Below, one piece after another: positions 2,286 through 48,852 of a DNA stretch of 53,560 nt. Each line of letters starts with the position of its first letter. The first letter of the stretch is position 1. The translations under genes were made by a program, and so were the position numbers. The stretch covers positions 1-53,560 of the forward strand of contig JAUVNS010000023.1 of assembly GCA_030599585.1 (NCBI GenBank), written 5' to 3'. Under the pieces are notes generated by a model, which saw only the letters and a program-made list of their open reading frames with translations, was not told the origin of the DNA and did no database searches. This DNA comes from Promethearchaeota archaeon (GTDB lineage: Archaea; Asgardarchaeota; Lokiarchaeia; Sigyniarchaeales; SOKP01).

Positions 2286-3980
2286 TTACGGTTCTTTAAC
2301 ATTAATTTCTTCAGTATCGTTAAACCTTTGAGCAGAAATTCCGATTCTCTGTGTTTTTCGCGCTTTGCGATTTTGCCTGCGCTCTTCCATCACGAAATCG
2401 ATGACGTATTTCGCAACTCCGGCAGTTGTAAATCCCACGTTTCTGTCTGTTTCTTGAATTTGTCGTATTAACTGTACGACTTTCTGATTGGGTATAGGAC
2501 GCTCAAAAGTGTATGGAATCTCGGATAATTCGGCTTCAATGTTTTTGATCTGAGCTCTGTTTTTTCTTGATATATCCTTACAACTCCAAGGTTTTGTTGC
2601 AGATCCTATTTTTTCTTGGTAATCGAACGAACTCGGGACAAGATACATAGGTGCAGGACGAAATTGTATGGGAAGCGGAACTTGGTTCCCGTTTTCGGTT
2701 ATACGCTTTTGATTAGAATAGTGCTTTATTGTATTTATAACGTTTTCGCAATTGTTTAACTCGGTGTCAAGGTTGCTAAACCCGACTACTAACATTGCAA
2801 CCACGTTCACGCCTGCTTGAGTTAAGGTTTCGATCGTTTCCATGTTTTGATGCACGCTCGTACCTTTGTTCATTTGGAGTAAGTCCTCGTCAGAAAACGC
2901 CTCAAATCCCACCCAAGCGTCTTCAAATCCCGCTAATTTAGCCTTTTTAGCAAGTTCTAGGGTGATATTAGCTCTGAAATGCGTCCCGAATTTGATATTT
3001 AATTTTTTTTCGATCAAGGCGTCGCATAATCGCTCGAAATAGTCTAAATCGTCGTTTATTAACGATTCTCCAAACAACATAAATCCGGGATTGTGGTCGG
3101 CTACGATTTTTTCAACGTCTCGAACAACTTTTTCGACCGAACGAGTTCTGAACCGAGGTCCAAAGAGTTTCCATTCCGCACAGAACTTACATCTATTCGT
3201 ACACCCGCGTGATCGGTATGTTGAGGCGATGTTATAATAGGTATCTAAAGGAATGTCGGTATAGTCAGGGGTAGGCAACGAATCCAAATCGAGTTGCACT
3301 CCTACCAAGTAATAAATTTCTTTATTGCCATCTAAACTCATAACTCCTTTTATTTCTGACAGTTTTTTGCCTTGAGCTATCTCAAGTAGCGGTTGTTCGC
3401 CCTCCCCAATTACTAAACCATCGCACATCTTATTTTTGAGAAATAACTTAAATGCTCCAAACGATTGAGTGATAGAAGGTCCGCCCCATACTATTTTACA
3501 ATCGGGATTATGTAATTTTAAGTAACAAGATGAGATAACTGTTTCAGAAATGTTTAGGTAATTGAGCGAGAAACCAAGAGTTGTAAACCCTTTTAACGCT
3601 TCCAGAACTGTGTTTTTACAATAATTTATCGTGCTTTCAAACCGCTTTTTTGTTGTTTCGGGACTTTCGAACATCCTCGAGGAATAATCGTTTAAGATAT
3701 CTGGATACGCACCTTCAGCGAGATTTACTTCCCGATTATTTAAAATATCGTTCGTAATAGGGATTAAAAGCGGTAAATCTTGATGATTCACGATAAAATT
3801 GGTTAAGTTCAACTGGATAAGTGGATCGAAAACTACTTTAGGGAGGGTGTAATTTCTCGTTCTAAAATTAAATACCTTAACCGGAATTGAATTTTGTCTA
3901 AGAAACGCTTGTAAGCACGCGAGTCCGAGGGGTATTAACCTATCGTTGATACACGATACTTTTACTAAGGCAATTGTCAT
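2286..3980 (-). CDS. B12-binding radical SAM protein (class B methyltransferase-like)
   Basis: PLGLACL N-terminus, WGGP...GEGE B12-binding segment, SRGCTNRCKFC (CxxxCxxC). Confidence 0.9.
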   Translation of the reverse strand: MTIALVKVSCINDRLIPLGLACLQAFLRQNSIPVKVFNFRTRNYTLPKVVFDPLIQLNLTNFIVNHQDLPLLIPITNDILNNREVNLAEGAYPDILNDYSSRMFESPETTKKRFESTINYCKNTVLEALKGFTTLGFSLNYLNISETVISSCYLKLHNPDCKIVWGGPSITQSFGAFKLFLKNKMCDGLVIGEGEQPLLEIAQGKKLSEIKGVMSLDGNKEIYYLVGVQLDLDSLPTPDYTDIPLDTYYNIASTYRSRGCTNRCKFCAEWKLFGPRFRTRSVEKVVRDVEKIVADHNPGFMLFGESLINDDLDYFERLCDALIEKKLNIKFGTHFRANITLELAKKAKLAGFEDAWVGFEAFSDEDLLQMNKGTSVHQNMETIETLTQAGVNVVAMLVVGFSNLDTELNNCENVINTIKHYSNQKRITENGNQVPLPIQFRPAPMYLVPSSFDYQEKIGSATKPWSCKDISRKNRAQIKNIEAELSEIPYTFERPIPNQKVVQLIRQIQETDRNVGFTTAGVAKYVIDFVMEERRQNRKARKTQRIGISAQRFNDTEEINVKEP

Positions 3981-6258: not shown

Positions 6259-7431
6259 TTACTTTCTTAGGATTCGTTTCTGGACCACGAAGTGAGTTCT
6301 TAGGGGGGTGCTATGTGGAAAGATCGATTTGATTGCGCGGTCGTTATTTGCCCAAATAGTTGTTCCTTCGTAGTAATCGTACCCATAGACGGCTGCTGAA
6401 AGCATTTTTCCAATGTTATGCAAAGCAGAGAATATCCCTTTTCCAGCGTATTCCTTTTTAATGATTACTGTGTCCACGTTCATATGTGTTAGCGGTTCAT
6501 CAGCCCACAACTGATAAAGATTTGGTTGGCACATCAACACTCCAACTAGTTTTCCGGTGCGTTTATCGAACCCAAATACACACGTAGAGACGATGTTATC
6601 GAGATCGGCTGCGTTCCAAGTGTCTAAAAAGCCTGGCATGTCAGCATACGTCTGAGGATCGAAATCAGGGTTGACAATTTTTACTTTTTTGCTGGCCTGA
6701 TCGTAAATTTCCATAATTTCATCGAATCGATCCTTACCTCCTGCGGCGTCAGCTAACACGGCATAGAACGATTGTTGCGCTAATTGCAATATTTGGGGTT
6801 TTAACGCTTTGATTTCGTCGAGAGAGAGGAATCGGGCCATTATGTTGTCGTCTAATTTTTTTCCTTTCTTCCAAGTCGTCATAAACGTATCGACGCATGA
6901 ATATTTGGAATCGATTTTGTAGCCTAAATCTTTTAGATACTCTAGAACACTTGAGTCCGGATCGTTAAACGACACACCGCTCATCATTGGGGCAGTAAAT
7001 CCTTCGGTTTGGAAACCTATCCCTCCGACTTTTTTTGGATAGTTTATTGGGCCTCTGAGCTTTTTGAACTTGTGAACTTTCACGAACTTCTCGCACTCTC
7101 CCATGAGGGATTTACACGCTTCGAAATTTTGCGCGTGTAGCCAACCAAACGTAGGACAACGCATGCCATAACTTCGAAAATCTTGGTCGATTTGACAAAT
7201 CACAAACCCCACCCAAGTTTCGTTTCGAATCGCTGCGAACATTACTATCTCGTCTTCGGGGCTAATAGATTTGTGCTGGTAGAAAGTAATTATCTCGGAC
7301 ACGATTTTGGGCTTTAGCGCCTCGTTTGGAACGTATAAGAGTTCCGTTAAGATTTTTCTGATTTGAGCGGGCTTGCTCACTTCTACTACTTTTACGCTTT
7401 GAACTTGTTTTTTTTGTGTAATTAATTCCAT
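6259..7431 (-). CDS. GNAT-fold (tandem GNAT) N-acyltransferase-like protein; start reassigned to MELITQKK at 7431
   Basis: FGWLHA...KKLRGPIN...LKDLGY and KEYAGKGIFSAL acetyl-CoA-binding motif A. A promoter motif at 7476-7490 lies inside the longer ORF call and upstream of this ATG. Confidence 0.7.
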   Translation of the reverse strand: MELITQKKQVQSVKVVEVSKPAQIRKILTELLYVPNEALKPKIVSEIITFYQHKSISPEDEIVMFAAIRNETWVGFVICQIDQDFRSYGMRCPTFGWLHAQNFEACKSLMGECEKFVKVHKFKKLRGPINYPKKVGGIGFQTEGFTAPMMSGVSFNDPDSSVLEYLKDLGYKIDSKYSCVDTFMTTWKKGKKLDDNIMARFLSLDEIKALKPQILQLAQQSFYAVLADAAGGKDRFDEIMEIYDQASKKVKIVNPDFDPQTYADMPGFLDTWNAADLDNIVSTCVFGFDKRTGKLVGVLMCQPNLYQLWADEPLTHMNVDTVIIKKEYAGKGIFSALHNIGKMLSAAVYGYDYYEGTTIWANNDRAIKSIFPHSTPLRTHFVVQKRILRK

Positions 7432-7475
7432 TTTATACAACTTTCTTAGATGTTTATTATGTGAGATATAATTTG

Positions 7476-7490
7476 TATTTAAAGAAAAAA
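7476..7490 (-). promoter_or_regulatory. Pyrimidine-BRE class promoter
   Basis: Minus strand TTTTTTCTTTAAATA. Confidence 0.55.
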
Positions 7491-8081
7491 ATCTTTTTTC
7501 ATTAGTTGTTAGATAGCAATGTTCTATTATGGATGTAGGGATTATTTCTTCCGACATAGTTATTTCACGATTTTAAAATTTCTTAAGATGCTTCAAGGTT
7601 AGGAGCGCAAACTCGAATACCTCAAAAATTTTGATCTTTAAATTGATCACATTCAATTTTTTTTTAATTAGAACCATAGATCAAAAAACCAACTCTAGAC
7701 CGGTAGCTCCTATTATCTAAAGAATTAGTGTTAAAAAATGATGAGTATATATACTTATATCAAAAGACAAGAATAGAGGTTCATTTTATGCAGATAACAT
7801 TAAATGTAGTTCGCGGAGAAATTAGCGTTTCAGTCAAAAAAAGCAAGAATAGAAAACCATCCATATTATTGAAGGTTTTCGAAGAAAAAAAATATAGAAA
7901 ACTTGACTATTGGATGTAAATTAATATTCTGGCTGAGAATAACATCCTCAAGTTTCCTAATCATAAATCTACTTTTTTTTATTTAAACCCTCAACTTTTT
8001 TCTATTTAGAGCACTACTCTTTTTTATTATTAAAATAACTTGATGAAGTTGTTTGAACTTTATCTGAACAAAAAGAAATTT

Positions 8082-9320
8082 TTAAGTATTTATTTGCACA
8101 TTCAACATATCTACTAATTCTTGTCCCGCCGGAAGAAGTTCAGGTCTTGGAACGTTTCCTTCGAAGTAATTAAACACTACGTAATCTTCAAACGATTTAT
8201 CCTCTTTTCTGTAAGACCAACAAGGCATGTATCCCCTTGCTCTAAACCCGAACTCGTAAAATAATTGTTGGTGCTCCGGACTGAAGGCAGAAACGAACAC
8301 TTCGCTGTATCTAATACTGTTTTCTTTGATAACCTTTAGAAACTCTTCTAAATATACGTAAAGTTCTTCAGGCGAATTCACGTGATATTTAGTTTTTTCG
8401 AGGTTCTGAATGCAGGGAGTATGTAAAAAAGAAAAATAGGATTTTGTTCCTGTAATAAAAAACTGAAAGTATTGATAGCCGTACTTATCTTTGATTACGT
8501 CTTTCCTAAACTTTTTTTGCATGGAAGCAATTTTTTGGTAATCTAAGTGTAAATCGGGAGAGACTAACTGAAAATTTCCTAAATTATATAGGTTGTCGCA
8601 ATGTAAAAAACTGTCCAACGCGTTTCTGATAAGAAGCGGTGTCTGATGTTCCCGATATCCGTTGAGAGCTTTTTCCCTAAATACGACGCCCATCACGTCG
8701 GATTCTACCTTGTTAAAAAACACGTCCTTGTTAGGAAAGAACGCTACGGTGTTTATTCCGCACACAGAAGTTATGTATTGCGAAGCTGCGTGGGCCGTTC
8801 TGTTCTCGCAATACCACATGAGTATCTCGTCCTTATAAGTGCTCCACATCCACGCGTAGGAACCGATAATGGATTTGGTAACGTCGATAATTCCTTGGTA
8901 TTCTTTTCTAACCATAAAACCGCCGGTGTATCCTTTTCGGTTTTCGAAGTCTAACGCGCACCTGAAACAGCCAACTATATCCTCTTCGATCTTAAAGAGA
9001 ATGAAGTGATTTTCGGGACTTTCGATCATCTTTTTTACTTCTTTCGGATCTTCTATCTCTTTATATGGATATTTGCCTTCGTATACTTCCTTACAAATAG
9101 TAGAAATTTCAACTGCGTCTTTAGGCTTGGCTAGGTATAGGGTAGGGCTAATTTTATCCGAACCTAACTTAGAATCGATGGTAAAATCTAACTCCATACC
9201 TTTTTCCAGGTCGAGATCTAAAACGTGTAGAAAAACGTCTAAAAATTCGTCTACCGACCCGGGGTTGAGTTTCTGGTGCGAAATTATTTTAGGGATAGAA
9301 ATTGTTTCTGGGCTGATCAT
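8082..9320 (-). CDS. GNAT-family acyltransferase-like protein
   Basis: AKPKDAVEI..ICKEVY...YPY...GGFMVRKEYQG and C-terminal FYEFGFRARGYMP. Confidence 0.7.
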   Translation of the reverse strand: MISPETISIPKIISHQKLNPGSVDEFLDVFLHVLDLDLEKGMELDFTIDSKLGSDKISPTLYLAKPKDAVEISTICKEVYEGKYPYKEIEDPKEVKKMIESPENHFILFKIEEDIVGCFRCALDFENRKGYTGGFMVRKEYQGIIDVTKSIIGSYAWMWSTYKDEILMWYCENRTAHAASQYITSVCGINTVAFFPNKDVFFNKVESDVMGVVFREKALNGYREHQTPLLIRNALDSFLHCDNLYNLGNFQLVSPDLHLDYQKIASMQKKFRKDVIKDKYGYQYFQFFITGTKSYFSFLHTPCIQNLEKTKYHVNSPEELYVYLEEFLKVIKENSIRYSEVFVSAFSPEHQQLFYEFGFRARGYMPCWSYRKEDKSFEDYVVFNYFEGNVPRPELLPAGQELVDMLNVQINT

Positions 9321-9556: not shown

Positions 9557-10426
9557 ATGTTTACTAATCAAAAATTAGAATCGTGGTCAGAACCCTATTG
9601 GGAACACGTTATAAGAAACATAGGACCTATAACCTTCGACGAGCAAGAAACGATAAGAACTTCGCGAGTTGCAGTGCTCGGAGTAGGCGGGTTAGGCGGT
9701 CCGCTCGCAGAAAATTTGGTAAGAGCAGGCTGTCAAAACTTAGTAATATGTGACTTTGATGTTTTCGACGAGTCCAACCTAAACCGGCAGATTTGCACAA
9801 TCGAGGACATCGGTAAGAGAAAAATAGATGTGGTAGCGGAGTTTTTACAAAAAATCGATCCTGAAGTAAGCGTGAGAAAATTTTTTAAGATTTCTCAACG
9901 AAACATTGATGCGGTCCTTGAGGGCGTGAAAGTAATTGCGCTAACCTTAGACGATCCTGCTACTTCCATCTTTATTGCTAGAGAGGCTCGGAAGCGTGGA
10001 ATTCCTATGATAGAGTCTTGGGGCGTGCCGTTCTTGTTTACGTGGTGGTTTGCTCCCGAGAGCGTAGATTACGAAGAATGTTACGGGTTAGAAACCAAAA
10101 AGTTCGACTATTTCGAGCTTTCCAACCTAAAAAAAGAGATCAACCTCGCAACTTACCAAGCTTTATTGCCAAAAGTATTTTCGATGCCAGGAGTCAGGGA
10201 AAAATACGACCGAGAACCTGGAGCGTTCGAAGAAATGATGGCGGGCAACATCGGAGCTCGCTCGTTTGCGCCTTTTGTCCGAATAACTGCAGATTTTCTT
10301 TCGGTAGACGTAATTTTCTCGGGAATTCTAAGCGTAAAACCGAAGAACTTAGCTCCAAACTTGAAAGGGTTCGATTACATCAACATGGAAGTCCTAGAAA
10401 CTAAACTAATACCTAATATTCTTTAA
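9557..10426 (+). CDS. ThiF/E1-like adenylyltransferase
   Basis: RNIG...EQETIRTSRVAVLGVGGLGG...DFDVFDESNLNRQ...GKRK. Lacks the C-terminal CxxC zinc pairs of MoeB. Confidence 0.85.
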   Translation: MFTNQKLESWSEPYWEHVIRNIGPITFDEQETIRTSRVAVLGVGGLGGPLAENLVRAGCQNLVICDFDVFDESNLNRQICTIEDIGKRKIDVVAEFLQKIDPEVSVRKFFKISQRNIDAVLEGVKVIALTLDDPATSIFIAREARKRGIPMIESWGVPFLFTWWFAPESVDYEECYGLETKKFDYFELSNLKKEINLATYQALLPKVFSMPGVREKYDREPGAFEEMMAGNIGARSFAPFVRITADFLSVDVIFSGILSVKPKNLAPNLKGFDYINMEVLETKLIPNIL

Positions 10427-21402: not shown

Positions 21403-23208
21403 TTAGTCTTCCAAAAACGAGGAGTATTTACCGCCGTATTTAGTTGGCGAAGGAGTAGCAATTTGAGTTTCTACTTGCTCAGTCTCGAACAAACTTTTTA
21501 ATTTGGGCTCGCTTCGCTTCGCGTCAATGTTATTTTTTAAAGATTTAGCTTCGACTCGTTCAATTACTCCATAGGACGCTTCTTTTCCTAAACATTCGTA
21601 TCCAAACTGAGTTATCAATTCGTCCGTCAGCTCTTCCTTAAGATCGAGTAAGTCGATCTCGCTAAATTCCAAAGTTTGTTGGTAGTAAGGAGTTTTAAAT
21701 TGAACTTTGAATTCTTTTTTAGTCTTGTACGCTTTAAAATACAAGAACGCGAGCAAAGAGAGGTAAATCCCTAAGACAGCGAACCCAATCGTGTTAAACA
21801 ACCGTAATAAGAAATATATTTTTGCAAAATAGAGAACTAAAAGCGCTACTGAATATCCGAAAATAGGAATTGAGATGTATCTTACGCGAGAACTAAGTTC
21901 GACTTCTGATTTCCGATAATCTTTTATTGAGCTCGTTTTTTTCGTTCTTTTTTCTATCATTTTATATTTCTTCTCTAAAAACTTGACCAAAGGGGGTAAA
22001 TCGGAGCGAACTACGGCGTGGAGGTTCGAGGTTCTTTGATACGGAAAGACCAGCGATTTTTCCATGCTTTTAGGCGGAGCGTTGCAAACTAAGATAGGTT
22101 CGATAACGACTTTGTATTGCGTGGTTCCAGAAAGAAACACCAAATTTTTGTTTCCGAGGTTTTTTTCCGAGCGTAAATCTAGTTGTAAGTATTTTTGGAA
22201 GAACTGAAGGATAGAGGTTCCATTCAGGACGTTTTCTTGCATCTTATCTCTGATTTGTAACAAATTCTGAGTAATTAATTTTACATCGTTGTGAACTCCA
22301 GAAACTCTGTTGTTCGGATAAGCTTTCGATTCTATTTTGGTTTCGCCAACCAATACCGTTCCTTTTGCGTCGAACCGCTTCACAGGGAACAAAAACAGAA
22401 TTATAAGGTTATCTGAAGCTTCCACCAACCTACACCCGAGATAGTCGAGGTTCTTAGTAAATTGGTTTAACGATTCTAAAGAGCTTGGGATTTCGTAGCA
22501 CCCAACATCCTTAAATGTGTCGCTAACGATATTTTCGAAAGTACTATCTCTAAAACTTTCAAAATTTACATTCTTTTGTTCCGCTAGGTTAGATTCTATA
22601 GGCTCTTCTTCTGTTGAGCTTTTCGATTCCGGTTGATTTTGTTGTATTTGTATTTCAGGAATAATTTCTTGTGAATACTTTTCTTCTTCGTATTCGTTTT
22701 CCTGTTCTATCTCTGGTTGAGTATCAAATTCAATACTGTTCGCTAATTGAATTGTTTTTGGTTCAATACTAATAACTTTTTCTTCTTCCTCAAAAGCTTC
22801 AGTTTGGGATTGATAAAACGCTTCTTCTAGTTCAGGTATGGTGTCCTCGTTAATTTCTTCGGGCACATCTACGATTACTTCTTCAACTTCGTATTTTTCA
22901 ATAGAATCTGGTACGGAGTTTTTTTTCATTGCGTCAGGAATTTGAGTAGTCTCGCTTACATCGCTTTCTTTTTGAGAACTCTCCAAGTAATTTTTAGCCG
23001 CAGTAATGAATTTTGTGGCGGTAGCTAAGCCAATTCCTGGAGTTTCCGAAAGTCGTTCAGGAGTCATCTCGGCAATTTGTCTTACAGATACAATTTTAGC
23101 GTTATACAATTTCTCGGCGGTTGTCGTCCCGATTCCTTTGATCTTGGTTAGATCCGCTCTGGAAAGTTCAACAACTACACTTTCTTGGGTTCCATATACA
23201 TCTGTCAT
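21403..23208 (-). CDS. Helix-hairpin-helix DNA-binding protein with acidic linker and 2 TM helices
   Basis: LTKIKGIGTTTAEKL...LSETPGIGLATATKF (tandem HhH, RadA-NTD-like), a Glu-rich linker, and a TM pair near the C-terminus. Confidence 0.75.
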   Translation of the reverse strand: MTDVYGTQESVVVELSRADLTKIKGIGTTTAEKLYNAKIVSVRQIAEMTPERLSETPGIGLATATKFITAAKNYLESSQKESDVSETTQIPDAMKKNSVPDSIEKYEVEEVIVDVPEEINEDTIPELEEAFYQSQTEAFEEEEKVISIEPKTIQLANSIEFDTQPEIEQENEYEEEKYSQEIIPEIQIQQNQPESKSSTEEEPIESNLAEQKNVNFESFRDSTFENIVSDTFKDVGCYEIPSSLESLNQFTKNLDYLGCRLVEASDNLIILFLFPVKRFDAKGTVLVGETKIESKAYPNNRVSGVHNDVKLITQNLLQIRDKMQENVLNGTSILQFFQKYLQLDLRSEKNLGNKNLVFLSGTTQYKVVIEPILVCNAPPKSMEKSLVFPYQRTSNLHAVVRSDLPPLVKFLEKKYKMIEKRTKKTSSIKDYRKSEVELSSRVRYISIPIFGYSVALLVLYFAKIYFLLRLFNTIGFAVLGIYLSLLAFLYFKAYKTKKEFKVQFKTPYYQQTLEFSEIDLLDLKEELTDELITQFGYECLGKEASYGVIERVEAKSLKNNIDAKRSEPKLKSLFETEQVETQIATPSPTKYGGKYSSFLED

Positions 23209-25850: not shown

Positions 25851-28382
25851 ATGTCTCTTACTAACTATACCGACGCAAAAAATTCGCCAGATGAGGATGG
25901 AACGGAGGAAGAAATATTTGAATACGTTCAAGACGAGCGTATCCTTCGAGTATTGTTCGAGCAAAAGATATTTAAGCTCCGACAAATCCAAAAAGAAGCG
26001 ATCCAGAAAGGTCTTTTCTTTCGAAAGTCGTTCCTCGTAAGCGCACCCTCGGGAAGCGGTAAAACTCTGATAGGAGAAATTAGCGCCGTAAACAACGTGT
26101 TCCAAAAGTTTGGCAAATCGATTTATTTAGTCCCCTATAAAGCTCTCGCAACCGAAAAATACGTCCATTTTAAGAAAGCGTACGAGCGATTCGGCGTTAA
26201 AACCGAGTTATCGATAGGAGATTACGATGTGGACGATTCTCGGTTGGCTAAAGCAGATATTATCGTAACTACTTACGAGAAAATGGATTCGATTTTACGA
26301 AACTTCAGCGAAAAGGAATGGATTATCGACATCTCGACTATTATAATCGACGAAATCCATATTTTAGGGGAATCGAGCGGTTCTCGTGGTCCACGATTAG
26401 AGTCGTTAATCGTGAGACTGAACGAGTTCTTACACCAACCGCAACTAATAGGACTTTCGGCAACCATAAAAAATCCCCAATTTTTTAACGAGTGGCTCTC
26501 TTCACTTGGTAATAGTTCGACGCTTATAATATCCGATGCCCGACCCGTTCCTTTACATTATAGCGTAGATATAACCCAGAACAAAGACTCTACGATAAAA
26601 AAAATTATTAAAACAACTTTAGTAGATAGGGGGCAAATCCTAGTTTTTTTAAACAGGAGAAAATCTACGCAGCAAACCGCTCGAAACCTCAAAAATTTGG
26701 TGAAGACTCAATTATCCGAAGCCGAGCTAAAAGCGTGTAGGAAGATAGAAGAAAAGCTCAATAAAATTAAAGGAAGGCACGTAGAACTTAAAAAGGCGGT
26801 TAAGTGTGGTATAGCGTTCCATCACGCCGGGTTGCTTCCGAAGGAACGAAAACTCGTAGAAGATGGGTATCGAAAACACGTGATTAAAGTTATTTGCTGT
26901 ACAACTACCTTAAGTGCCGGCATTAACGTGCCTGCAAGAGTAGTAGTAGTCAAAGATTTCAAGAGATATGTGACCTCAGGGCATAACATTAAAAATTTCT
27001 CTGGTTATTACGAGAACGGAGATGGCTTCTCTTATTTCATGCCTTTCTCGGCTAATTCCGTGTTCCAAATGCTCGGTAGGGCGGGGAGACCGGGGCTTGA
27101 CTTAGAAGGGTTTGGTTATTTACTTGCAAAGAATGTAGACGAAAGGGATTGGATCGAGGATCATTACTTCCAAAACGCCCATACTACGGATTCCTACGTT
27201 CCTAAATACAACGATTTAATTTCGGGGCTCAACAAACTTAACACCTTGAAAGAACAAGTTCTTTTACGAATTTACGAGGAAAAAAATATGACCTTGGACA
27301 AGCTAAAAGATTTTTTCCAGAAAACCTTTTTTTGGTTCAGCATAAAAGATAAGATGTCAAAAGAACAAATACCGATAGATCAACTCTTAATGATTAAAGA
27401 AATAACTCCTGCAAACATTCTCAAACTTCACTCAGATCCAGAAAAAGTTAAGAAACTAGGTATTAGGCGTTACCAAATTAAGATCACCAAACTCACGAAA
27501 TCTAACGTGTCGGGATACATAAAGACCGATTTTGGAGTCTTTTTTACCGAGTTCGATGTTGACGTGGGAATACGATGTTCGTGCGGGTTCGAAAACGGTC
27601 TGTCAAACAATTACTCTAACGAGCAATTTTCGTTCGAGTTCTGCGACCATATTACCGCTTTTTTGCTCCACTTGATTCAAATCCCCGATAAAAACTTTCA
27701 AAAATACGTGGAAGATATCGTTCCTAAGTCGGTTAAGAACCAATACGTGCTCAACTATCTTTTTGAAAAAGGGTTAATTGTAAAGAGGGATAACGGCACC
27801 ATAAAATGTTCGCAGTTCGGAAAGCTCATCATAAGACTTTACCTTTATCCCGTTTCAGGAGTTTTAATACGATACAAGCTCGAAAACGCCGCGATTGAAA
27901 CCTACCAAGACGTAATTAAGGAAGCGTACGAGGTACTTAAATCGGAAATGAAGGTTCGGAACTACAAGTTACTCCAACCCATTTTAGAATGGTGCGACGA
28001 AGAACCAATCGACGACATTTTAGAAAGGCACAAGATAATGGCGGGCGATCTTTACACCATCAAAGATAACTTAGAACGCATTATAACGTTTATTGGAATT
28101 ATTGCGGTCCATTTAAGCGAGTCAGATCGAGACATAGCTGAGGCTATGGTTAAAGTAGCGGAGATGTCCGAGACGCTCAAAATTAGGGTGCATTACGGCA
28201 TTAGCGAGGAATTGTTTGATTTAGTCTTAAGATTGGACAATGTAGCAAGAGTAAGAGCGAGAATGTTGTATAACGCCGGTTATCACACCGCCACGAAGGT
28301 AAAAAGAGAAAATCCCTACGTATTAAATCGAAAGACGGGCTTAGGGATTAACTTGTGTAAGAAAATTGTTAAAGCCAAGTAA
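25851..28382 (+). CDS. Ski2-like/Hel308(Hjm)-family SF2 helicase with inserted SWIM zinc finger
   Basis: APSGSGKT, DEIH, GLSAT, AFHHAGL, TTTLSAGINVPA, QMLGRAGRPG; CSC...CDH (SWIM); C-terminal RVRARMLYNAG and HhH. Confidence 0.9.
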   Translation: MSLTNYTDAKNSPDEDGTEEEIFEYVQDERILRVLFEQKIFKLRQIQKEAIQKGLFFRKSFLVSAPSGSGKTLIGEISAVNNVFQKFGKSIYLVPYKALATEKYVHFKKAYERFGVKTELSIGDYDVDDSRLAKADIIVTTYEKMDSILRNFSEKEWIIDISTIIIDEIHILGESSGSRGPRLESLIVRLNEFLHQPQLIGLSATIKNPQFFNEWLSSLGNSSTLIISDARPVPLHYSVDITQNKDSTIKKIIKTTLVDRGQILVFLNRRKSTQQTARNLKNLVKTQLSEAELKACRKIEEKLNKIKGRHVELKKAVKCGIAFHHAGLLPKERKLVEDGYRKHVIKVICCTTTLSAGINVPARVVVVKDFKRYVTSGHNIKNFSGYYENGDGFSYFMPFSANSVFQMLGRAGRPGLDLEGFGYLLAKNVDERDWIEDHYFQNAHTTDSYVPKYNDLISGLNKLNTLKEQVLLRIYEEKNMTLDKLKDFFQKTFFWFSIKDKMSKEQIPIDQLLMIKEITPANILKLHSDPEKVKKLGIRRYQIKITKLTKSNVSGYIKTDFGVFFTEFDVDVGIRCSCGFENGLSNNYSNEQFSFEFCDHITAFLLHLIQIPDKNFQKYVEDIVPKSVKNQYVLNYLFEKGLIVKRDNGTIKCSQFGKLIIRLYLYPVSGVLIRYKLENAAIETYQDVIKEAYEVLKSEMKVRNYKLLQPILEWCDEEPIDDILERHKIMAGDLYTIKDNLERIITFIGIIAVHLSESDRDIAEAMVKVAEMSETLKIRVHYGISEELFDLVLRLDNVARVRARMLYNAGYHTATKVKRENPYVLNRKTGLGINLCKKIVKAK

Positions 28383-40858: not shown

Positions 40859-43834
40859 TTATTTTGGAGTTCGCTTATTTTTGAACAGTTTAGTTATTAT
40901 TTTAATCCGAACCACTTTAGAAGTGCTAGATAAAGATATCGAAATCGCTCCTATCATCCCTATCGCTAATGGAATGGTTATTACGGCGTCTGCTTGGTAA
41001 AGATCGGTAGGATCGTTCTCAAGGTCAGGATCGGGATCGGGGTCGGGATTGGAATTAGGATCGATATAATCGAAGGTTGCGTTGCAGACGAACTGGGAGT
41101 CCCCTAAGTAAGGATCGTTAAGAAAAAATTCGAAATAATAGTTTCCGTAATAGTTTGGCGAGTAATCGAAGGTAAACGTCGAACTCTCTAAGGAATGAGA
41201 TAATGATAAGTCTATTACGTCGACATAACCCCCGTCACGATACACGTTGGCATACATCAAGCCATCGAAGATCGGTTCGTCTCCTGAAATAAAAGCGTGG
41301 CGTCCATAAATATTGGCTTGGATACGAGATTCGGTCTTTACGATCGAATACGAGAAAAAAGAATCAAATTCGGTAGTAAAAGAGAACGGAACGCTCGCTT
41401 TTTTTATGGCTCCGTCGTACACGCACAACTCCCCAGCCACAATTGGATAATTACCGGTATCAATAGACACATATACCATTTTCTGGTAAGTATAGTTGCT
41501 TAATTGGTCCAGTAATATTGTTCCTAATTGTGTGGACTCTATTTTAACCGTGGTATATTGTCCAAAATCAGAAAGTATGAGGTTCACCAATTCGACCGAG
41601 AACAAATTGTTGCTTCCTAAACCAATAGTATCGTAATAAGAAGTGCTCAATCTCAAGTTGTCAGTCTTTGCTATTTCGCATAACCACGTAAATACGTCAT
41701 GCTCCAACTCCCTTCTATCAATGGTGAGATAAAATTCGTTGTATATATCAGAATATATGTTTTGAACCAGTAAGTGCGTTTGCTCAACGTCGAATTGAAT
41801 ACCTAAGGCCAACGATTCCGAAATTTTATAGCTGTAATAAAGATTTTTTACATTTGAATAGTTCAGGTGATTTATTATGAAATTACTAATTTTATTTGAG
41901 TTCAGGTTGTATTGTTCGGTCAAGTTTAAAACAAATATCGCGTAATATAAGTTTTCTAATATCAATTCTACGCTATCGGAGTATTTAGCGTCAAAATATA
42001 ACTCGGTCGGAGTCTCCACGAGGTTCCTAGTAATGTAAGTCCCAAGCGCGGTTTTATCGAATCCTAGATCGGCGAAATACTGGCTATTTATGTTTCCTAG
42101 TCCCAGATATTGACTAATAAGTTCCATCGTTTGTATGGCATAATAAGAGTTTTTCAAGTAGACTAGATCGTTTTTCCACTCGGAAGAAGAGTTAATATTA
42201 ATATTAATTAAGAACCCTCCAAAGTTATCGATGTAGCTCAGATCGAGGAATTGCGAGGTGATCACGTCCTGTAAAACTGTATGTAGATCGTAGAGAGAGG
42301 CAAAGTCGTTTAATTTAAAAATTTTCCTTAAGGAGTCGAGAGATTTGAAAATATTTTGGTGAGAACTTATCAAATTGATCTCGTCTACGAATTCGTGATG
42401 TCCAGCAGTATCGTAGTCGAACGGTTTCGAGCGAAAACTCGCCTTCTCCAAATTCATACCGGTACACGCGAAAAAATCGTAATTACCACCACGATCTACA
42501 ACAGTGTCTACGAGTAAGTCGTATATAGATTGAATGTCAAGCTCTCCAATTTTGCCGAAGTATTCGTAAGACGATACTAGGTTATAGAGCAGGTCTATAG
42601 ATGTGTAATCCTCTGAAAGCAAAGAATATCCGCGCTCTTGAACAAACAAAGAAATAAACGAAGAGATATCGTTTCTATCCCCTAGCGAGAACCCTGAAAC
42701 ATCTCCTGTTTCCGAAAGCGATCGTACAATTTGGAAGGTGTCGATAAGTTCGTGATAACTCACCGAAGTCGAAGCTTCCCAACCCCCGCGATAATTTCGA
42801 TTGTTAACTATAAAGGCTAAGGCGTCGCTTCTCACAAAAGAAGTAAAACCCGTAATATCTGCTAGTTCTAAATTGATCGCAGTAGAAACGATGTTAGAAT
42901 AGTTAGCCGCCCACATTGAATCTGATACGTCAAAGTATGCTCCTTCGGAATGGTATAGCGCTGTAAGGTGCTGGTGAAACTTGGTAATATCAATAACATC
43001 AACGTAGCTACTTCCAAAGGTTTCTAACGTTTTCACGCAATAATAGGAAGCAAATTGGTTTGGCTCTGGCTCCATTAACGAGTCGAACATGCTTTCGTAA
43101 TCGTTATAAAAGCCAGTAGAAGAGCCTAACGATTGTAAACCGTCAATGTAAGACGTTATATCGCTCCTTTCTTGGGAATGTGCGTTCCAATCAACGCCTA
43201 AAGTATCTAAAGTAAGAACGGCGTAGTAGGTGTTGTCTGCGGTAGGGATTTTAAATCCTTCTTCTAACGAGCTATCGTAAGACTGTCCTATAAATCCATA
43301 CAAATATGGGTGATAACTATCCCAAATAAAATCGATCATGTCCGCAATATTTATCGAATTAACGGCATTCAAAATGTTCAAGGAAAGTACGGCGTAGCAA
43401 TTGACTTGTAAAAGCGTAGACAAAGGGTAATACCTGCCAGGTATTTTTGAAGCTAAGTATCTATCAGAATTTTTGTCCGAAAATATGTGGGAACTGGAGT
43501 TGTAAAACGATAAAACGTAGTTAATTACCGCTTGTTGGTCGATATCCCCTAACTTTCCGATAGCGTCTAAGACGTAGATCGCGTAATAAGTCGCTTGAAG
43601 AGAGTCCGAATAAATCTGAGGGTAATAGCCGTATGTTGCGTAATCGGCGTTTTTTGCGTCAAAAACTGATTGCAAAGTCTCGAGGTTCGAGGCATCAGAG
43701 GTGGCCAACAAGTCAAAATTTTCGTTTTGTGTTTCACTTGGATTTGCGAAAGTTCTTACGCCAATTGTTGAAACACAAGCTAAAACTACAATTAACACAA
43801 TGCTAACTAAAACTAGATGTTTTTTCCATTTCAT
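40859..43834 (-). CDS. Secreted, membrane-anchored prenyltransferase/squalene-oxidase-repeat (alpha/alpha barrel) surface protein
   Basis: Signal peptide, repeated TYYAxxxLxxL / GGF motifs, DPNSNPDPDPDPD linker, C-terminal TM and basic tail. Confidence 0.75.
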   Translation of the reverse strand: MKWKKHLVLVSIVLIVVLACVSTIGVRTFANPSETQNENFDLLATSDASNLETLQSVFDAKNADYATYGYYPQIYSDSLQATYYAIYVLDAIGKLGDIDQQAVINYVLSFYNSSSHIFSDKNSDRYLASKIPGRYYPLSTLLQVNCYAVLSLNILNAVNSINIADMIDFIWDSYHPYLYGFIGQSYDSSLEEGFKIPTADNTYYAVLTLDTLGVDWNAHSQERSDITSYIDGLQSLGSSTGFYNDYESMFDSLMEPEPNQFASYYCVKTLETFGSSYVDVIDITKFHQHLTALYHSEGAYFDVSDSMWAANYSNIVSTAINLELADITGFTSFVRSDALAFIVNNRNYRGGWEASTSVSYHELIDTFQIVRSLSETGDVSGFSLGDRNDISSFISLFVQERGYSLLSEDYTSIDLLYNLVSSYEYFGKIGELDIQSIYDLLVDTVVDRGGNYDFFACTGMNLEKASFRSKPFDYDTAGHHEFVDEINLISSHQNIFKSLDSLRKIFKLNDFASLYDLHTVLQDVITSQFLDLSYIDNFGGFLINININSSSEWKNDLVYLKNSYYAIQTMELISQYLGLGNINSQYFADLGFDKTALGTYITRNLVETPTELYFDAKYSDSVELILENLYYAIFVLNLTEQYNLNSNKISNFIINHLNYSNVKNLYYSYKISESLALGIQFDVEQTHLLVQNIYSDIYNEFYLTIDRRELEHDVFTWLCEIAKTDNLRLSTSYYDTIGLGSNNLFSVELVNLILSDFGQYTTVKIESTQLGTILLDQLSNYTYQKMVYVSIDTGNYPIVAGELCVYDGAIKKASVPFSFTTEFDSFFSYSIVKTESRIQANIYGRHAFISGDEPIFDGLMYANVYRDGGYVDVIDLSLSHSLESSTFTFDYSPNYYGNYYFEFFLNDPYLGDSQFVCNATFDYIDPNSNPDPDPDPDLENDPTDLYQADAVITIPLAIGMIGAISISLSSTSKVVRIKIITKLFKNKRTPK

Positions 43835-44586: not shown

Positions 44587-45861
44587 TCAACAAACCGATG
44601 GTGGACCGGTTGGGTTGTGATATTTCCACAGTTCGACTTTCACGCCCTCCTCATCCATATTATCTTTTTTGTTAGATAAAGAAGCGTCTTGAAAGTTCGT
44701 TGAACTATCTTCTATTTCGTTATTTTGATTTTTGGCAACCGAGGCAACTAAATACCCGCTTGCGTCTTTTACAACGAAGTAATATTCCTCGCTCTCGTTT
44801 AAGTTGTTAAACACTTGACTTGCGTCCCCTAAGATTATCTGAACTATGTCGTCGCACTGTGCCTCGTCCTCTGAAATTTCACTAACGTCTATAAACGCAG
44901 GATCTAATACGCCTAATTTAATCATAACTCTTTTTAATAAACCAGCGGATTTTACGAGGCTTAGAAAACCCGGAACGTTAAGCCTTTGAATAACTTTTTT
45001 CTCGACTTGCCTGTGAATCGTTGACATTTTAACGCCTAAACGCTTGCAAATTGCGCTCACGCTCACTTCTTTCTTCTGGGAGCAGAGAAGCGTAATAGAA
45101 GTCACCAAGCCCACTACTACGTCGTCCTTAGTGTTTTTTATGACTTCGTAAAACCTGTCAAGTATCCGCTTCGATTGGTAGTAGAACGACATCCCCAGAT
45201 TGAAGTGTTCGCTGACCTCCAAAATTCTTTCTTTAATGTATTGCTTGCGATCTCGCTCTTGATACTCTGGCCAGATGCGAATAATCGAAAATTTAAAAGA
45301 GTTGAAATCGTTTTTTGAAACCTTGGACACCCCCAAAAGTTCTTTCTCGCTAATTGGTTTACCATTCTCTTTGTAGTACGCGTAAATAACGCAAGGGACT
45401 AACATTTCTGGACTTCTATATTTCGTTCCTTTGCCTAAATTAGCTCGAAATTGTTTAACTTTGCTAACAATTACCTCTACATCGCCTGAGGAGAAGCCTA
45501 ACGCGGTTAAAATTCGTTTTGCCTCCACTTTTATCGCAATATTAAATGTTTCTTCGGTAGGTCGGGAAGAGTCTATCTTGCTTAGACCTTCTAATTTCGC
45601 TGAATGTTGCATCCTTCTTCTTTCAGACCTAAATCCGATTTGTGTTTTTCCTAACACGGCGTATTGGACGATGTCTGCGTCGTACGGTCGGTGGTATTCT
45701 AATTTTTGTATTTCTAACACTATTCCACAAGCTCGACAAGTGTAACCTTCTTGAGTTTCTATTACGTCGGTAGAGCCACAGACATCGCATTGATACTGGG
45801 ACTCGAGACCTGAGATAATTTTTAACGATTTTATTTTATCAGCACTATGAGGTGTTGCCAT
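44587..45861 (-). CDS. tfb: Divergent transcription initiation factor IIB (TFB) paralog
   Basis: Zn ribbon CDVCGS...YTCRACGIVL, two cyclin-like repeats (YRSPEMLVPCVIY...PISEKEL; VSAICKRLGVKMSTI) and an acidic C-terminal extension. Confidence 0.8.
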   Translation of the reverse strand: MATPHSADKIKSLKIISGLESQYQCDVCGSTDVIETQEGYTCRACGIVLEIQKLEYHRPYDADIVQYAVLGKTQIGFRSERRRMQHSAKLEGLSKIDSSRPTEETFNIAIKVEAKRILTALGFSSGDVEVIVSKVKQFRANLGKGTKYRSPEMLVPCVIYAYYKENGKPISEKELLGVSKVSKNDFNSFKFSIIRIWPEYQERDRKQYIKERILEVSEHFNLGMSFYYQSKRILDRFYEVIKNTKDDVVVGLVTSITLLCSQKKEVSVSAICKRLGVKMSTIHRQVEKKVIQRLNVPGFLSLVKSAGLLKRVMIKLGVLDPAFIDVSEISEDEAQCDDIVQIILGDASQVFNNLNESEEYYFVVKDASGYLVASVAKNQNNEIEDSSTNFQDASLSNKKDNMDEEGVKVELWKYHNPTGPPSVC

Positions 45862-46529
45862 TTTTTTTCAACTTTTTTGTATTTTTTTGTAAAAACTTAC
45901 GATTACATTTTAATTAAAGAATTAAGATCACCAGTTTGCTATTTGAAGATTTGCTTCGAGCAATAAACACCTAGAAAGGTAAGAGATAATCAAACGATTA
46001 GCGAAAATTGAATCGAAATGTAACTATAAATTTTAGTTAATCCGTGTATTTAGTTGATTCCGTTCTATAGAACAAAGATAAATTGTGCATTTTTTCGTCA
46101 AAATCACAATTTTGCAATTCTATTCCAAATTAGGATATTTTTTGGATCATAGGCGCTAAAGTTACAGCTTAAATTGGGAGTATAAAGAGAATCGTAATGG
46201 AAATCTCGAGTTTATGACAATCTATATATCACTAGTATTGTGATTATACTAATAATTCTTATAGAATTATAATCTAAACGAACTGAAACCAATTTTCATA
46301 AATAATTAAACTTGGATTATTATTCTACGACTTTTCTTAAGTCTTCCGTTGAGGTTATTTTTAATTCCTAGGTTCGGTTATACGCTCAAAAGATCACTCA
46401 AAGTTGAGATTTTGAGTTTTTGATGCTTTTCTACTTTTTATTGCACTTTGATCTCTTTTTTTGAAATGATCTTTTTAAATCCCACGAATTTTTTCCAAAG
46501 AATTTTTTCTAATTTTTTTCTTCCTGAAA

Positions 46530-46543
46530 TTTTTTCTTTATAT
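46530..46543 (+). promoter_or_regulatory. Pyrimidine-BRE class promoter
   Basis: TTTTTTCTTTATAT, about 35 nt before ATG 46572. Confidence 0.6.
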
Positions 46544-46571
46544 GCTTCCTTAGCGTGACCAAATTACAATT

Positions 46572-47336
46572 ATGATAATGTTATATTTTTGGTTTTTTGT
46601 GTTATTAGTTGCCTCCGGCGCAATTCGAGCCCTCTACGGGTTAGCACATACGCCCGGTTACAAGTTATTTTTTAACTTGATAGCTATAGTTGGGGTGTTC
46701 GTCCACGAAGTAGCGCACTATACGGTGTCGCTTATTGTAGGCGGGAACCCCGGTAAAATACGGGTGAAATATCGAAACGAGGATAAAACGAGGGTATCGC
46801 CTCACGGATCGGTCAGCAATCCGGAATTCAAAAGGCAATCGGTCCTGCAAGCGTTTAGTATCAGTTTTGCCCCTCTTTTGGTATCCACTTTACTATTTAT
46901 GTTTTGCTTAGACGTTGTCTTTCACATCCAAACCGATCTCTGGGTAAAAGTAGTGGCAATTATTTTTAGCGTGTCGTTAGTGTTTGGCTTAAAACCTTCG
47001 GGACAAGACGCGAAAGTAGTCGGCTACGCGTATCAAAACGATCCTCGTTATTCGGTGTATCAAATATTTCTCTTACTATTATCGGGAGTGTTAGTGTGGT
47101 TATTTGTAGATTTATATTTTATTGTTCTACCCTTCGAGGTAATGTATTACGTCGAATATGTACTGGTTTTAGTCGTGTTTTACTTCGGGCTAAAAGCTTT
47201 GTTTTGGTTAGCCGGTAGAATTATAGGGAGCGTAGCTAAAAAATTGGGAAAAGCTCAAGTGTCAAGCCCTAAATTCCTTACCCGAAGAAGAAGGTTTAAA
47301 TACATAAAAGATTCTAACGAAAGAGAGGTGCAATAA
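46572..47336 (+). CDS. Membrane zinc metalloprotease (M50/site-2-like)
   Basis: GVFVHEVAH (HExxH) in TM context, ISFAPL, PSGQD. Confidence 0.75.
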   Translation: MIMLYFWFFVLLVASGAIRALYGLAHTPGYKLFFNLIAIVGVFVHEVAHYTVSLIVGGNPGKIRVKYRNEDKTRVSPHGSVSNPEFKRQSVLQAFSISFAPLLVSTLLFMFCLDVVFHIQTDLWVKVVAIIFSVSLVFGLKPSGQDAKVVGYAYQNDPRYSVYQIFLLLLSGVLVWLFVDLYFIVLPFEVMYYVEYVLVLVVFYFGLKALFWLAGRIIGSVAKKLGKAQVSSPKFLTRRRRFKYIKDSNEREVQ

Positions 47337-47341
47337 TAAAT

Positions 47342-47686
47342 ATGAAAGGTTTTTGTTTAATCGCAATAATAATCGCTATGCTGATGTTTTACCAGAGAGA
47401 GCCCATCTACACGGTAATTATAGTCGGGATTGGTCTGGCGTTATACATCGTTTACAAGGCAAGAAAAGGCGGTAATGGAACGATCGGCTCTTTTTTTAGC
47501 GGCAATCAATCGCGTCAAGACAACAGGTTAGACGATTTAATTGCTCTGATGATGCTCCAACAACTCTCCTCGACCAATTCTCAGAGCATGGGCGCTTCTG
47601 AGCAAATTTCTGAACAATCTCGAAAGCGACGAGAAGCGATCGAAAAGACGCAAAAAGAAACATTAGACTTACTGAGCGGTGATTGA
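47342..47686 (+). CDS. Small membrane protein
   Basis: N-terminal TM hairpin. Stop overlaps the radB start. Confidence 0.65.
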   Translation: MKGFCLIAIIIAMLMFYQREPIYTVIIVGIGLALYIVYKARKGGNGTIGSFFSGNQSRQDNRLDDLIALMMLQQLSSTNSQSMGASEQISEQSRKRREAIEKTQKETLDLLSGD

Positions 47687-48393
47687 AACTGGATACCTTT
47701 GACATAGCTTCTTTACTAAATTTGTTAAAAGAACGTAGAATCGTTTCGATCTCGGGAGAATCGGGCACCGGAAAAACCACATTAGCCTTACAGTTGGTCG
47801 CTTCTGCGTTAACTCAAGAGGACGGGAGCAAGAACCAAGCTTTATGGGTCCAAGCCAGCGAACAATTTCCCAAAAAACGGCTTCAAGTACTTTTTAAAAA
47901 TTCTCATGATAGCTATAAAGCCCTCCTGAAAAGAATTTTTGTATATCCAGGAACGAATCCTTTTTTGGATTATCAAACCCAGTCGACTTTTTTTACAAAC
48001 TTGGTATCCGTGATTTTGCCGTTTAACACTAAATACATCGTAATTGATAACATATCCCACTATCTAAGGTTTGCTGCTTCGTGTTGCTCCGATGTAAAAC
48101 AAAAGATGGCGCTCTTAGACGATTTTTTTAGCTCGCAGCTATTTCCCCTTATAATGCGTTGTCTAAGGGAAGAGATCGTTCTCGTGTTAATACACGAAGT
48201 CTCTTTTGACCCTGCGCTAGGAAAAAATCAACCGTTTTTTAACAAACTCTACTCGAGGATCAACAGCGTAAACGTAAGCTTGTCGAAACCGTTCGGTTCT
48301 AAAATTAAATTGATGGAACTCGCCTCGCGGGACGAGATAATTTCGAAAGACGTAAGATACATGATTAAAAATAAAGGAATTTCTCTAGTTTAA
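47683..48393 (+). CDS. radB: RadB-like RecA-fold ATPase
   Basis: ISGESGTGKTTLALQ, WVQASEQFPKKRL, IVIDNIS. Lacks the RadA N-terminal domain. Confidence 0.7.
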   Translation: MKLDTFDIASLLNLLKERRIVSISGESGTGKTTLALQLVASALTQEDGSKNQALWVQASEQFPKKRLQVLFKNSHDSYKALLKRIFVYPGTNPFLDYQTQSTFFTNLVSVILPFNTKYIVIDNISHYLRFAASCCSDVKQKMALLDDFFSSQLFPLIMRCLREEIVLVLIHEVSFDPALGKNQPFFNKLYSRINSVNVSLSKPFGSKIKLMELASRDEIISKDVRYMIKNKGISLV

Positions 48394-48474: not shown

Positions 48475-48852
48475 ATGATCAAAGCGCCTGATTCTAAAAC
48501 TTCGCGAAGCATTAAATGTTCCATCTGTCGATCCGGGATTAAAGACCTCCGAACAATGTATCAATCAAGTTTAAAATTGGGAGTAATCTGTAAAGTTTGT
48601 CGGGAGCGATTCTCTGAAGAAGATATCGAGATGATCGTAAACCTTTTTTTTGCCTTTGGTGGATATTTCGGACAATTCGACAAATCCGACTTTTCCATGG
48701 ACGAAACAATCTTCGAATTTGCTGAAAAGTTAAGCGCAGGTAATTCTACTTTTCACGCCCAGAACGTGAAGATGTGGCACAAAATATTAACGCACGGCAT
48801 CGTCCCTAAAGAGTTTTTAGAAGAACTCTCTGTTATAGCGGAACAAGAGTAA
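48475..48852 (+). CDS. Zinc-binding hypothetical protein
   Basis: CSIC...CKVC. Confidence 0.7.
   Translation: MIKAPDSKTSRSIKCSICRSGIKDLRTMYQSSLKLGVICKVCRERFSEEDIEMIVNLFFAFGGYFGQFDKSDFSMDETIFEFAEKLSAGNSTFHAQNVKMWHKILTHGIVPKEFLEELSVIAEQE

Follow-up and report, generated by a model that had tools for sequence, protein, structure and literature searches.

The question raised by the DNA described here is whether an archaeal TFB has been re-specified to serve a promoter class of its own. The stretch analyzed (the window) comprises 53,560 nucleotides of contig JAUVNS010000023.1 from a Promethearchaeota archaeon (GenBank assembly GCA_030599585.1, G000 below) and encodes, at positions 44587-45861 of the minus strand, a TFB-like protein lying among promoters in which a pyrimidine tract stands immediately before the TATA box. 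Archaea and eukaryotes universally rely on TFB/TFIIB to orient the promoter. To our knowledge, the element at that place is a purine-rich TFB-recognition element (BRE) in every archaeal and eukaryotic promoter known, and the known TFB/TFIIB paralogues read much the same BRE. The initial annotation of the window proposed a sigma-like specificity factor with a rewritten recognition helix. The protein is the best candidate reader of these promoters, and we favor, tentatively and at slightly below an even chance, the most economical explanation: the island encodes its own TFB/TFIIB-type alternative initiation factor, whose BRE-reading head has been re-specified.

A Conserved Gene for a Remodeled TFB Homologue

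The open reading frame (ORF) at 44587-45861 represents a genuine gene, and purifying selection acts on it. Among the 5.8 billion proteins searched there are 356 relatives; the 120 relatives listed are mostly 415-430 amino acids long, with 59-93 % identity and near-complete coverage, and those listed with names come from Lokiarchaeota-type metagenome genomes. An exhaustive search gives 342 representative clusters of the family with identity down to ~25 %. When the copies in this assembly are compared, the ratio of nonsynonymous to synonymous substitution rates (dN/dS) is 0.06-0.08 across ribbon, linker, and core; the C-terminal part has higher values, 0.22-0.26. The homologues and the low dN/dS therefore point to a real protein with selection acting along its whole length. 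A literature search found no paper describing this TFB-like family.

Searches of NCBIfam and the PDB with the single sequence give no match. In Pfam, Zn_Ribbon_TF (PF08271) matches at E 6e-4, below the curated cut-off, and is matched by 27 of 48 diverse relatives (best 5e-7); Cyclin_N (0.016) and several helix-turn-helix (HTH) models at residues 257-290 also match below threshold, and the TFIIB repeat (PF00382) has no match in this protein and matches two of the 48 relatives. The family profile built from the 48 relatives (A2) matches human TFIIB (1e-6), Pyrococcus woesei TFB (9e-5), BRF2 (9e-4), and Brf1 (2e-3) in the PDB, and hhalign aligns it with the genome's ten canonical TFBs in a 263-column match running from ribbon to HTH (99 % probability, E 9e-18). 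The four ribbon cysteines (Cys-25, Cys-28, Cys-42, and Cys-45) are invariant across the 48 relatives. The AlphaFold 2 (AF2) model has a predicted local distance difference test score (pLDDT) >90 for residues 100-320, and its top Foldseek matches are all TFIIB, TFB, Brf1, or Brf2. Structurally, the model aligns best with 1d3u_B, the TFB core of P. woesei in its complex with TBP and BRE-TATA DNA (Z 16.8, root mean square deviation 2.7 Å, 197/201 residues).

The product is thus a heavily remodeled TFB/TFIIB homologue with a zinc ribbon, a linker, and two cyclin repeats, and the profile, hhalign, and structural matches bear out the original description of a retained ribbon and two cyclin folds. 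The ribbon, linker, cyclin repeats, and C-terminal HTH follow in the same order as in the canonical proteins (P. woesei, PDB codes 1d3u and 1ais). The differences are substantial: identity is only ~14-18 %, the BRE-contact residues and the B-reader motif are replaced, an acidic domain of 100 amino acids is added, and the pI of the whole protein is 7.9 compared with 9.4-10.1 for the canonical TFB paralogues.

The Recognition Helix and the B-reader

The most conspicuous change is in the C-terminal HTH, where the segment cited in the initial annotation corresponds to residues 266-285. hhalign pairs the helix G-V-K-M-S-T-I-H-R-Q with the canonical G-V-T-E-V-T-I-R-N-R: Glu is replaced by Met-279, Val by Ser-280, the first Arg by His-283 (Gln in most relatives), and the second Arg by Gln-285. 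Among the 48 relatives Met-279 is found in 41, Ser-280 in 45, Thr-281 in 42, Gln or His at 283 in 43, and Gln-285 in 40, and Cys-272 is invariant, so that the proposed rewriting of the BRE-reading helix proves to be family-wide. The canonical V-T-x-R-x-R pattern is kept in all ten canonical TFB paralogues of the same genome. In the ternary structures of TFIIB/TFB, the Val and the first Arg of the recognition helix contact BRE bases, and we take these to be the positions occupied by Ser-280 and Gln/His-283 in the TFB-like helix; the canonical BRE-contact residues are replaced throughout the family.

The B-reader was originally reported as absent. The literal EWR motif is indeed missing, but hhalign places a conserved E/Q-Y-H/N-R-P-Y segment in its position, with Tyr-56 in 39, Pro-59 in 43, and Tyr-60 in 39 of the 48 relatives. 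The conservation of this segment points to a B-reader that is remodeled rather than lost. In the adjacent B-linker the canonical G-L-S-T-x-I is retained as G-x-T-Q-I-G. By column counts, few parts of the family are conserved as well as the linker between ribbon and cyclin repeats, a pattern that a segment in contact with polymerase would be expected to show.

A Promoter Class Enriched in the Island

The second line of evidence is the DNA around the gene. The pyrimidine promoters of the window consist of five to seven T residues followed by a C, with C or T next in some copies, and then without a gap the TATA box TTTAWATA; they lie 18-65 nucleotides ahead of the start codon and are oriented toward the gene. 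A 22-nucleotide matrix constructed from 13 window sites assigns the motif to 12 core transcription units of the window with scores of 14.7-23.8 bits, and none of the 15 copy-specific (variable) genes of the window reaches 14 bits. The promoter type would give a rule that separates the core genes of the island from its cargo. Termination of the upstream gene was considered as a role for the T-run and rejected, as many sites are in divergent gaps and all point toward the downstream gene.

The motif is a local feature of the genome. With the training contig left out, promoter-like matrix matches number 37 in the islands on contigs C12, C20, and C9 (143 kb) compared with 45 in the remaining 4.66 Mb, an approximately 27-fold difference in density. 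Windows of ±20 kb around the family genes contain 18 matches on C12 (4.3 expected), 12 on C20 (4.3 expected), and 13 on C9 (3.8 expected), the last being a fourth motif cluster of the genome at the site of ribbon-less relatives. The family gene on C10 has no motif cluster (3 matches, 2.9 expected), and every other family site in the genome is clustered. Gene flanks in 11 loci of other genomes hold 18 motif matches in 45 kb. Across the genome as a whole, the pyrimidine-plus-TATA pattern occurs 27 times in sense and 29 times in antisense orientation and is not a general promoter form, whereas the A-rich-plus-TATA pattern has a mild sense enrichment (231 sense and 168 antisense). A flank profile around every TTTAWA hexamer gives no signal because background TATA-like hexamers swamp it. 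The pyrimidine-BRE promoter class that had been proposed around the gene is therefore both real and local.

Nine of the ten canonical TFB genes are without motif enrichment, and the tenth, on C15, has a mild one (9 matches, 4.0 expected). The stretch G000:C15:30000-49999 (L044) is motif-rich and encodes a RadA paralogue, a homologue of the 125-amino acid protein of the window, and a TFB with a canonical recognition helix; it may be a related type of island with an ordinary TFB.

Association of the Gene and the Motif across Genomes

In 301 genomes of the phylum, full-length strong matches to the TFB-like protein are confined to the window's own Lokiarchaeial family (f1), and the weaker matches listed outside f1 lie in ORFs of canonical TFB length. 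No full-length match is found in 15 of 68 f1 genomes. The motif patterns counted were 15-mers for the CC and C-TTTT-A variants, plus the main variant; for the co-occurrence count two exact variants were pooled over 56 f1 genomes of known copy number, with the patterns read backwards as the control. The ratio of motif to control is 1.20 (median excess 1) in the 11 genomes with no copy found, 1.84 (median excess 12) in the 33 genomes with one copy, and 1.87-2.13 in the 11-12 genomes with two or more. The TFB-like gene is found in 39 of the 42 genomes with the island helicase and in 6 of the 14 that lack it, and gene and helicase usually lie on one contig within 10-20 kb of each other. The predicted co-occurrence thus stands insofar as genomes without the gene found have little motif excess, but fails at least once, in G267, where the motif is kept and three queries find no family member.

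Several points weigh against a dedicated factor. Shared membership in the island largely explains why gene and motif co-occur, and the association across genomes thus largely reflects presence of the island as a whole; the statistics are inflated by relatedness among the genomes, which are not independent samples. The window itself served to train the motif matrix, and the TFB-like protein alone falls below Pfam's TFIIB threshold. The start-site functions may differ from the canonical ones, as the canonical B-reader motif is changed. Three genomes of the same genus that are 95-99 % complete (G252, G234, and G267) have island genes with strong motifs, and in these no family member is found with the profile, with residues 200-424, with the C9-type core, or with a family-specific C-terminal alignment, the last of which recovered the positive controls G264 and G057 in the same run. 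In 20 kb of G234:C43 there are nine motif matches of at least 15 bits. The expected slot of the TFB-like gene is beyond the contig end in G234 and G252. In G267, which is 99 % complete and has four matches of at least 15 bits on its 19.5-kb island contig, the homologues of the two flanking genes (254 and 991 amino acids) are adjacent and divergent on C31 with ~200 bp between them, and the slot is empty. The expectation that the motif would not persist without this TFB clade is thereby contradicted at least once. The estimate for the island-encoded factor is kept below even because we infer every binding step of the mechanism and because, to judge from the G267 island, the motif can persist in the absence of the factor. 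The islands of these three genomes (L040, G267:C31:1-19539; L041, G234:C43:1-20000; L039, G252:C8) represent a compact divergent variant with 35-70 % protein identity and the same motif.

These observations bear most directly on an alternative in which the host machinery, either a canonical TFB paralogue or TBP with a T-run-binding activator, reads the island promoters and the TFB-like protein is auxiliary or modulatory, raising expression or setting its timing without conferring specificity. In addition to the empty slot in G267, genomes G150 and G159 have the helicase and still show motif excess where no TFB-like gene is found, and the C15 stretch unites a canonical HTH, a RadA paralogue, and mild motif excess. 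We nevertheless consider this alternative, the foremost competitor of the favored reading, unlikely. The recognition helix is changed coherently and fixed across the family, which is hard to explain if nothing new is read, the other nine canonical TFB genes have no motif association, and the TFB-like gene is near-constant in the island.

The Acidic C-terminal Domain

The region described initially as an acidic tail of roughly 100 amino acids is acidic and of that length (102 residues with 21 Asp/Glu and 6 Lys/Arg, pI 4.05), and it is a conserved β-rich domain rather than a mere tail. Its length is conserved, and three to four β-strands are placed around residues 336-345, 359-365, 371-377, and 408-414, followed by a variable Asn-rich spacer. 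All 32 C-terminal regions of alignment A3 keep the GPP sequence. At its end the protein reads P-x-G-P-P-x-x-C (residues 417-424, 44590-44610 on the minus strand), with the terminal Cys shared by the closer clade. The AF2 model of the domain calculated from the 32-sequence alignment has a pLDDT of 57 and is too poor for a fold search. No relatives of the domain are detectable outside the family: an Atlas feature search gave no usable match, and a search of shorter proteins gave only fragments of the same family.

A TFIIB-like core with a C-terminal extension is also the architecture of Brf1, Brf2, and Rrn7/TAF1B. Brf2 has a functionally important cysteine, and the invariant Cys-272 in the HTH of the TFB-like family provides a further likeness. 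An Asgard counterpart of these factors, dedicated to RNA genes instead of the island, would account for the extension, for the profile matches to BRF2 and Brf1, and for the JGI label "TFIIIB Brf1 / TFIIB" on two relatives among the matches listed. Those profile matches, however, span only the ribbon and the first cyclin repeat and are weaker than those to TFIIB/TFB, the extension has no detectable similarity, the window has no tRNA genes, and the protein was found in a single family of the phylum, where it is accessory; such a role is very improbable.

The additional domain and the altered B-reader, a motif needed in start-site selection, could also be combined in a non-initiating competitor, a repressor or decoy on TBP-DNA or on the polymerase dock that silences island or host genes until relieved via the acidic domain. 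The ribbon-less C9 relatives, which would be unable to recruit polymerase, also lie within a motif cluster. A decoy that does not position polymerase would not need the ribbon, B-linker, and linker, which are strongly conserved (dN/dS 0.06 in ribbon and linker), and this renders the competitor improbable, though less so than the Brf-like role.

The Upstream Region of the Gene

The intergenic gap upstream of the TFB-like gene is 710 bp (45862-46571). Both weaker motif variants reported there are confirmed, at 45922-45911 and 46191-46180 of the minus strand; the range originally given for the second is one base too long. They score 7.5 and 6.7 bits on the island matrix, compared with 18-24 bits for genuine island promoters, and the opposite strand of the same gap yields similar scores. 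Among the core units inside the window, the TFB-like gene alone lacks the island motif, apart from one unit at the margin of the contig; the C12 copy has an upstream region of another kind, in which a BRE rich in purines accompanies a TATA box. The suggested autoregulation is not supported, given the weak sites, the missing island motif, and the arrangement of the C12 copy.

Some 450 nucleotides upstream are shared across species, by contigs C49 and C20 and by two further genomes; among the conserved stretches are the distal TATA-like site, an inverted repeat, and the proximal 75 nucleotides. Such conservation suggests either a long leader or a regulator site upstream of the gene. An RNA element in the leader is not claimed, as Rfam has no match in 45700-46700 and the consensus fold is weak (-7.6 kcal/mol, one compensatory pair). 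The control region fits a regulator expressed by the host machinery under a control of its own, rather than autoregulation.

Organization of the Island

The family is a near-constant gene of a multi-copy DNA-repair and recombination island of ~50 kb in Loki-type Asgard archaea. The window is collinear over positions 1-53560 with G000:C12:11199-54131 (~88 % nucleotide identity) and with G000:C20:238139-293000 (238-293 kb, ~75 %). The island core includes three helicases (one Hel308-like), a RadA paralogue, two HHH proteins, ThiF-family and radical-SAM enzymes, a 1273-amino acid protein, a 991-amino acid surface protein, and others, and the copy-specific cargo between the core genes includes LRR, Kelch, and HNH proteins, among others. 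The family is often multi-copy, with three copies in this assembly and at least four in G171, and some copies are fragments with stop codons. The three island copies of this assembly could be true paralogues or co-binned strains (contamination 8.9 %), a question on which the three full-length TFB-like copies in the 10-contig genome G210 bear.

Distant relatives of the TFB-like core in the assembly depart from the common architecture. Two on C9 are ribbon-less, with 621 and 492 amino acids and long HTH-rich C-terminal parts (G000:C9:326330-327805 and 334107-335969), and one on C10 has 604 amino acids and approximately nine tandem ribbons before the core (G000:C10:6262-8073); they have the helix signature S-S/T-I/L-H/Y in common. 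The assembly also contains ten canonical TFB genes, three TBP genes (two in tandem, C9:164.7-166.0 kb), and eleven matches to the Rad51/RadA family, an unusually large repertoire of basal factors and recombinases.

Two features of the core genes are recorded as separate observations. The 991-amino acid protein (40859-43834, minus strand), a core gene with the strongest island promoter, has a signal-like N terminus, a match to a prenyltransferase-type α-α toroid, and a C-terminal membrane anchor. The ThiF-family (E1-like) enzyme (9557-10426, plus strand) and a B12-binding radical-SAM enzyme (2286-3980, minus strand) are core genes with an island promoter located beside the helicases and RadA. 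The features of the window are listed in Table 1.

Table 1. Features of the TFB-like gene, its upstream region, and the island promoters (window coordinates)
Feature	Position	Strand	Remarks
Divergent TFB-like coding sequence	44587-45861	-	424 aa plus stop; 356 homologues; dN/dS 0.06-0.08
Zinc ribbon, residues 23-48, CxxC...CxxC	45718-45795	-	Pfam Zn_Ribbon_TF E 6e-4; four invariant Cys
Remodeled B-reader and retained B-linker, residues 49-100	45562-45717	-	hhalign opposite canonical segments; column counts
Two cyclin-like repeats, residues 101-295	44977-45561	-	AF2 pLDDT >90; 1d3u_B match; TFIIB/TFB profile matches
C-terminal HTH with rewritten recognition helix, residues 266-290, invariant Cys-272	44992-45066	-	hhalign; column counts
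Acidic C-terminal domain, residues 323-424, β-strands, GPP near end	44590-44895	-	Low AF2 confidence; dN/dS 0.22-0.26
Proximal upstream element (first reported site), 7.5 bits	45908-45929	-	In block conserved in C20, L016, L017
Distal TATA-like element (second reported site), conserved, 6.7 bits	46176-46197	-	~315 nt before ATG
5-N5-5 inverted repeat, conserved, candidate regulator site	46329-46343	-	~470 nt upstream
Island promoter, 19.9 bits	46526-46547	+	Divergent operon 46572-48393
Island promoter, 23.8 bits	43886-43907	-	991-aa surface-protein gene 40859-43834
Island promoter, 21.9 bits	49346-49367	+	RadA-paralogue/HHH operon
Island promoter, 19.6 bits	48435-48456	+	Gene 48475-48852
Island promoter, 14.7 bits	38965-38986	-	Operon 38945-35637 (191 aa, helicase, Zn-ribbon protein)
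Island promoter, 18.6 bits	25768-25789	+	Hel308-like helicase 25851-28382
Island promoter, 20.9 bits	23234-23255	-	HHH protein gene 21403-23208
Island promoter, 20.5 bits	19981-20002	-	Operon 19933-13621
Island promoter, 20.3 bits	9470-9491	+	ThiF-family gene 9557-10426
Island promoter, 23.1 bits	9370-9391	-	Gene 8082-9320
Island promoter	7467-7488	-	Within over-called N terminus of ORF 6259-7557
Island promoter, 19.8 bits	4037-4058	-	Radical-SAM gene 2286-3980

Proposed Mechanism and Relation to Known Factors

In the proposed mechanism for the island-encoded initiation factor, the cyclin core would bind TBP on the TATA box, and the rewritten HTH would read the T-run-plus-C element directly upstream of it, which replaces the purine-rich BRE. 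The ribbon and linker would recruit the host RNA polymerase, and the factor would in this way activate the island's twelve core transcription units, like an alternative sigma factor. Its own gene would be driven by the ordinary host machinery behind the long conserved leader; a gene without the island promoter and apparently host-driven would therefore head the cascade. The acidic domain could serve as a gate, speculatively as an autoinhibitory DNA mimic or as a partner-docking module. A more elaborate version of the same idea, possible but doubtful, describes an orthogonal TFB-promoter pair in which the repair island has its own factor and a private channel gated by the acidic domain, with the ribbon-less and multi-ribbon relatives as antagonists or variants.

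Dedication of a basal-factor paralogue to a gene set has precedents. Haloarchaea have multiple TFBs, including regulon-specific paralogues, and the TFB3 of Sulfolobus is truncated and without the core. The TFB-like protein differs from TFB2 and TFB3 of Sulfolobus in that it keeps the whole core with the reading helix rewritten, in the pyrimidine element that the island promoters have instead of a purine-rich BRE, and in being encoded inside its proposed regulon. TFB2 drives a dedicated regulon, and the BRE of its promoters resembles that of TFB1 promoters with a different spacing (bioRxiv 10.64898/2026.09.06.749720). TFB3 is described as an activator of DNA-damage-responsive expression (PMC6101594), and the genes it serves, those for DNA damage and DNA transfer, recall the repair island.

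TFB homologues are also reported from Asgard viruses and mobile elements (WyrdV1, 10H_0, and 7H_42), where they are thought to redirect the host polymerase (bioRxiv 10.1101/2021.07.29.453957). In both cases TFB-like genes are found on accessory DNA of Asgard archaea, a comparison made by description only. For the TFB-like family, by contrast, no relative was found on IMG/VR viral contigs, no integrase lies near the islands (integrases are found only on C31 and C32 of this assembly), and the search of the window gave two weak PHROG matches and no virion genes. No recognizable virus or integrative element carrying the gene was found, although the islands are multi-copy. The proposed logic, an element-encoded specificity subunit matched to a private promoter class, has a parallel in the alternative sigma factors of bacteria and phages; the likeness is one of function only and implies no membership in that group.

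If the island-encoded factor does read the pyrimidine promoters, BRE recognition would be evolvable in the manner of sigma specificity, and the TFB-like protein with its promoters would provide an orthogonal promoter and factor pair for archaeal genetics.

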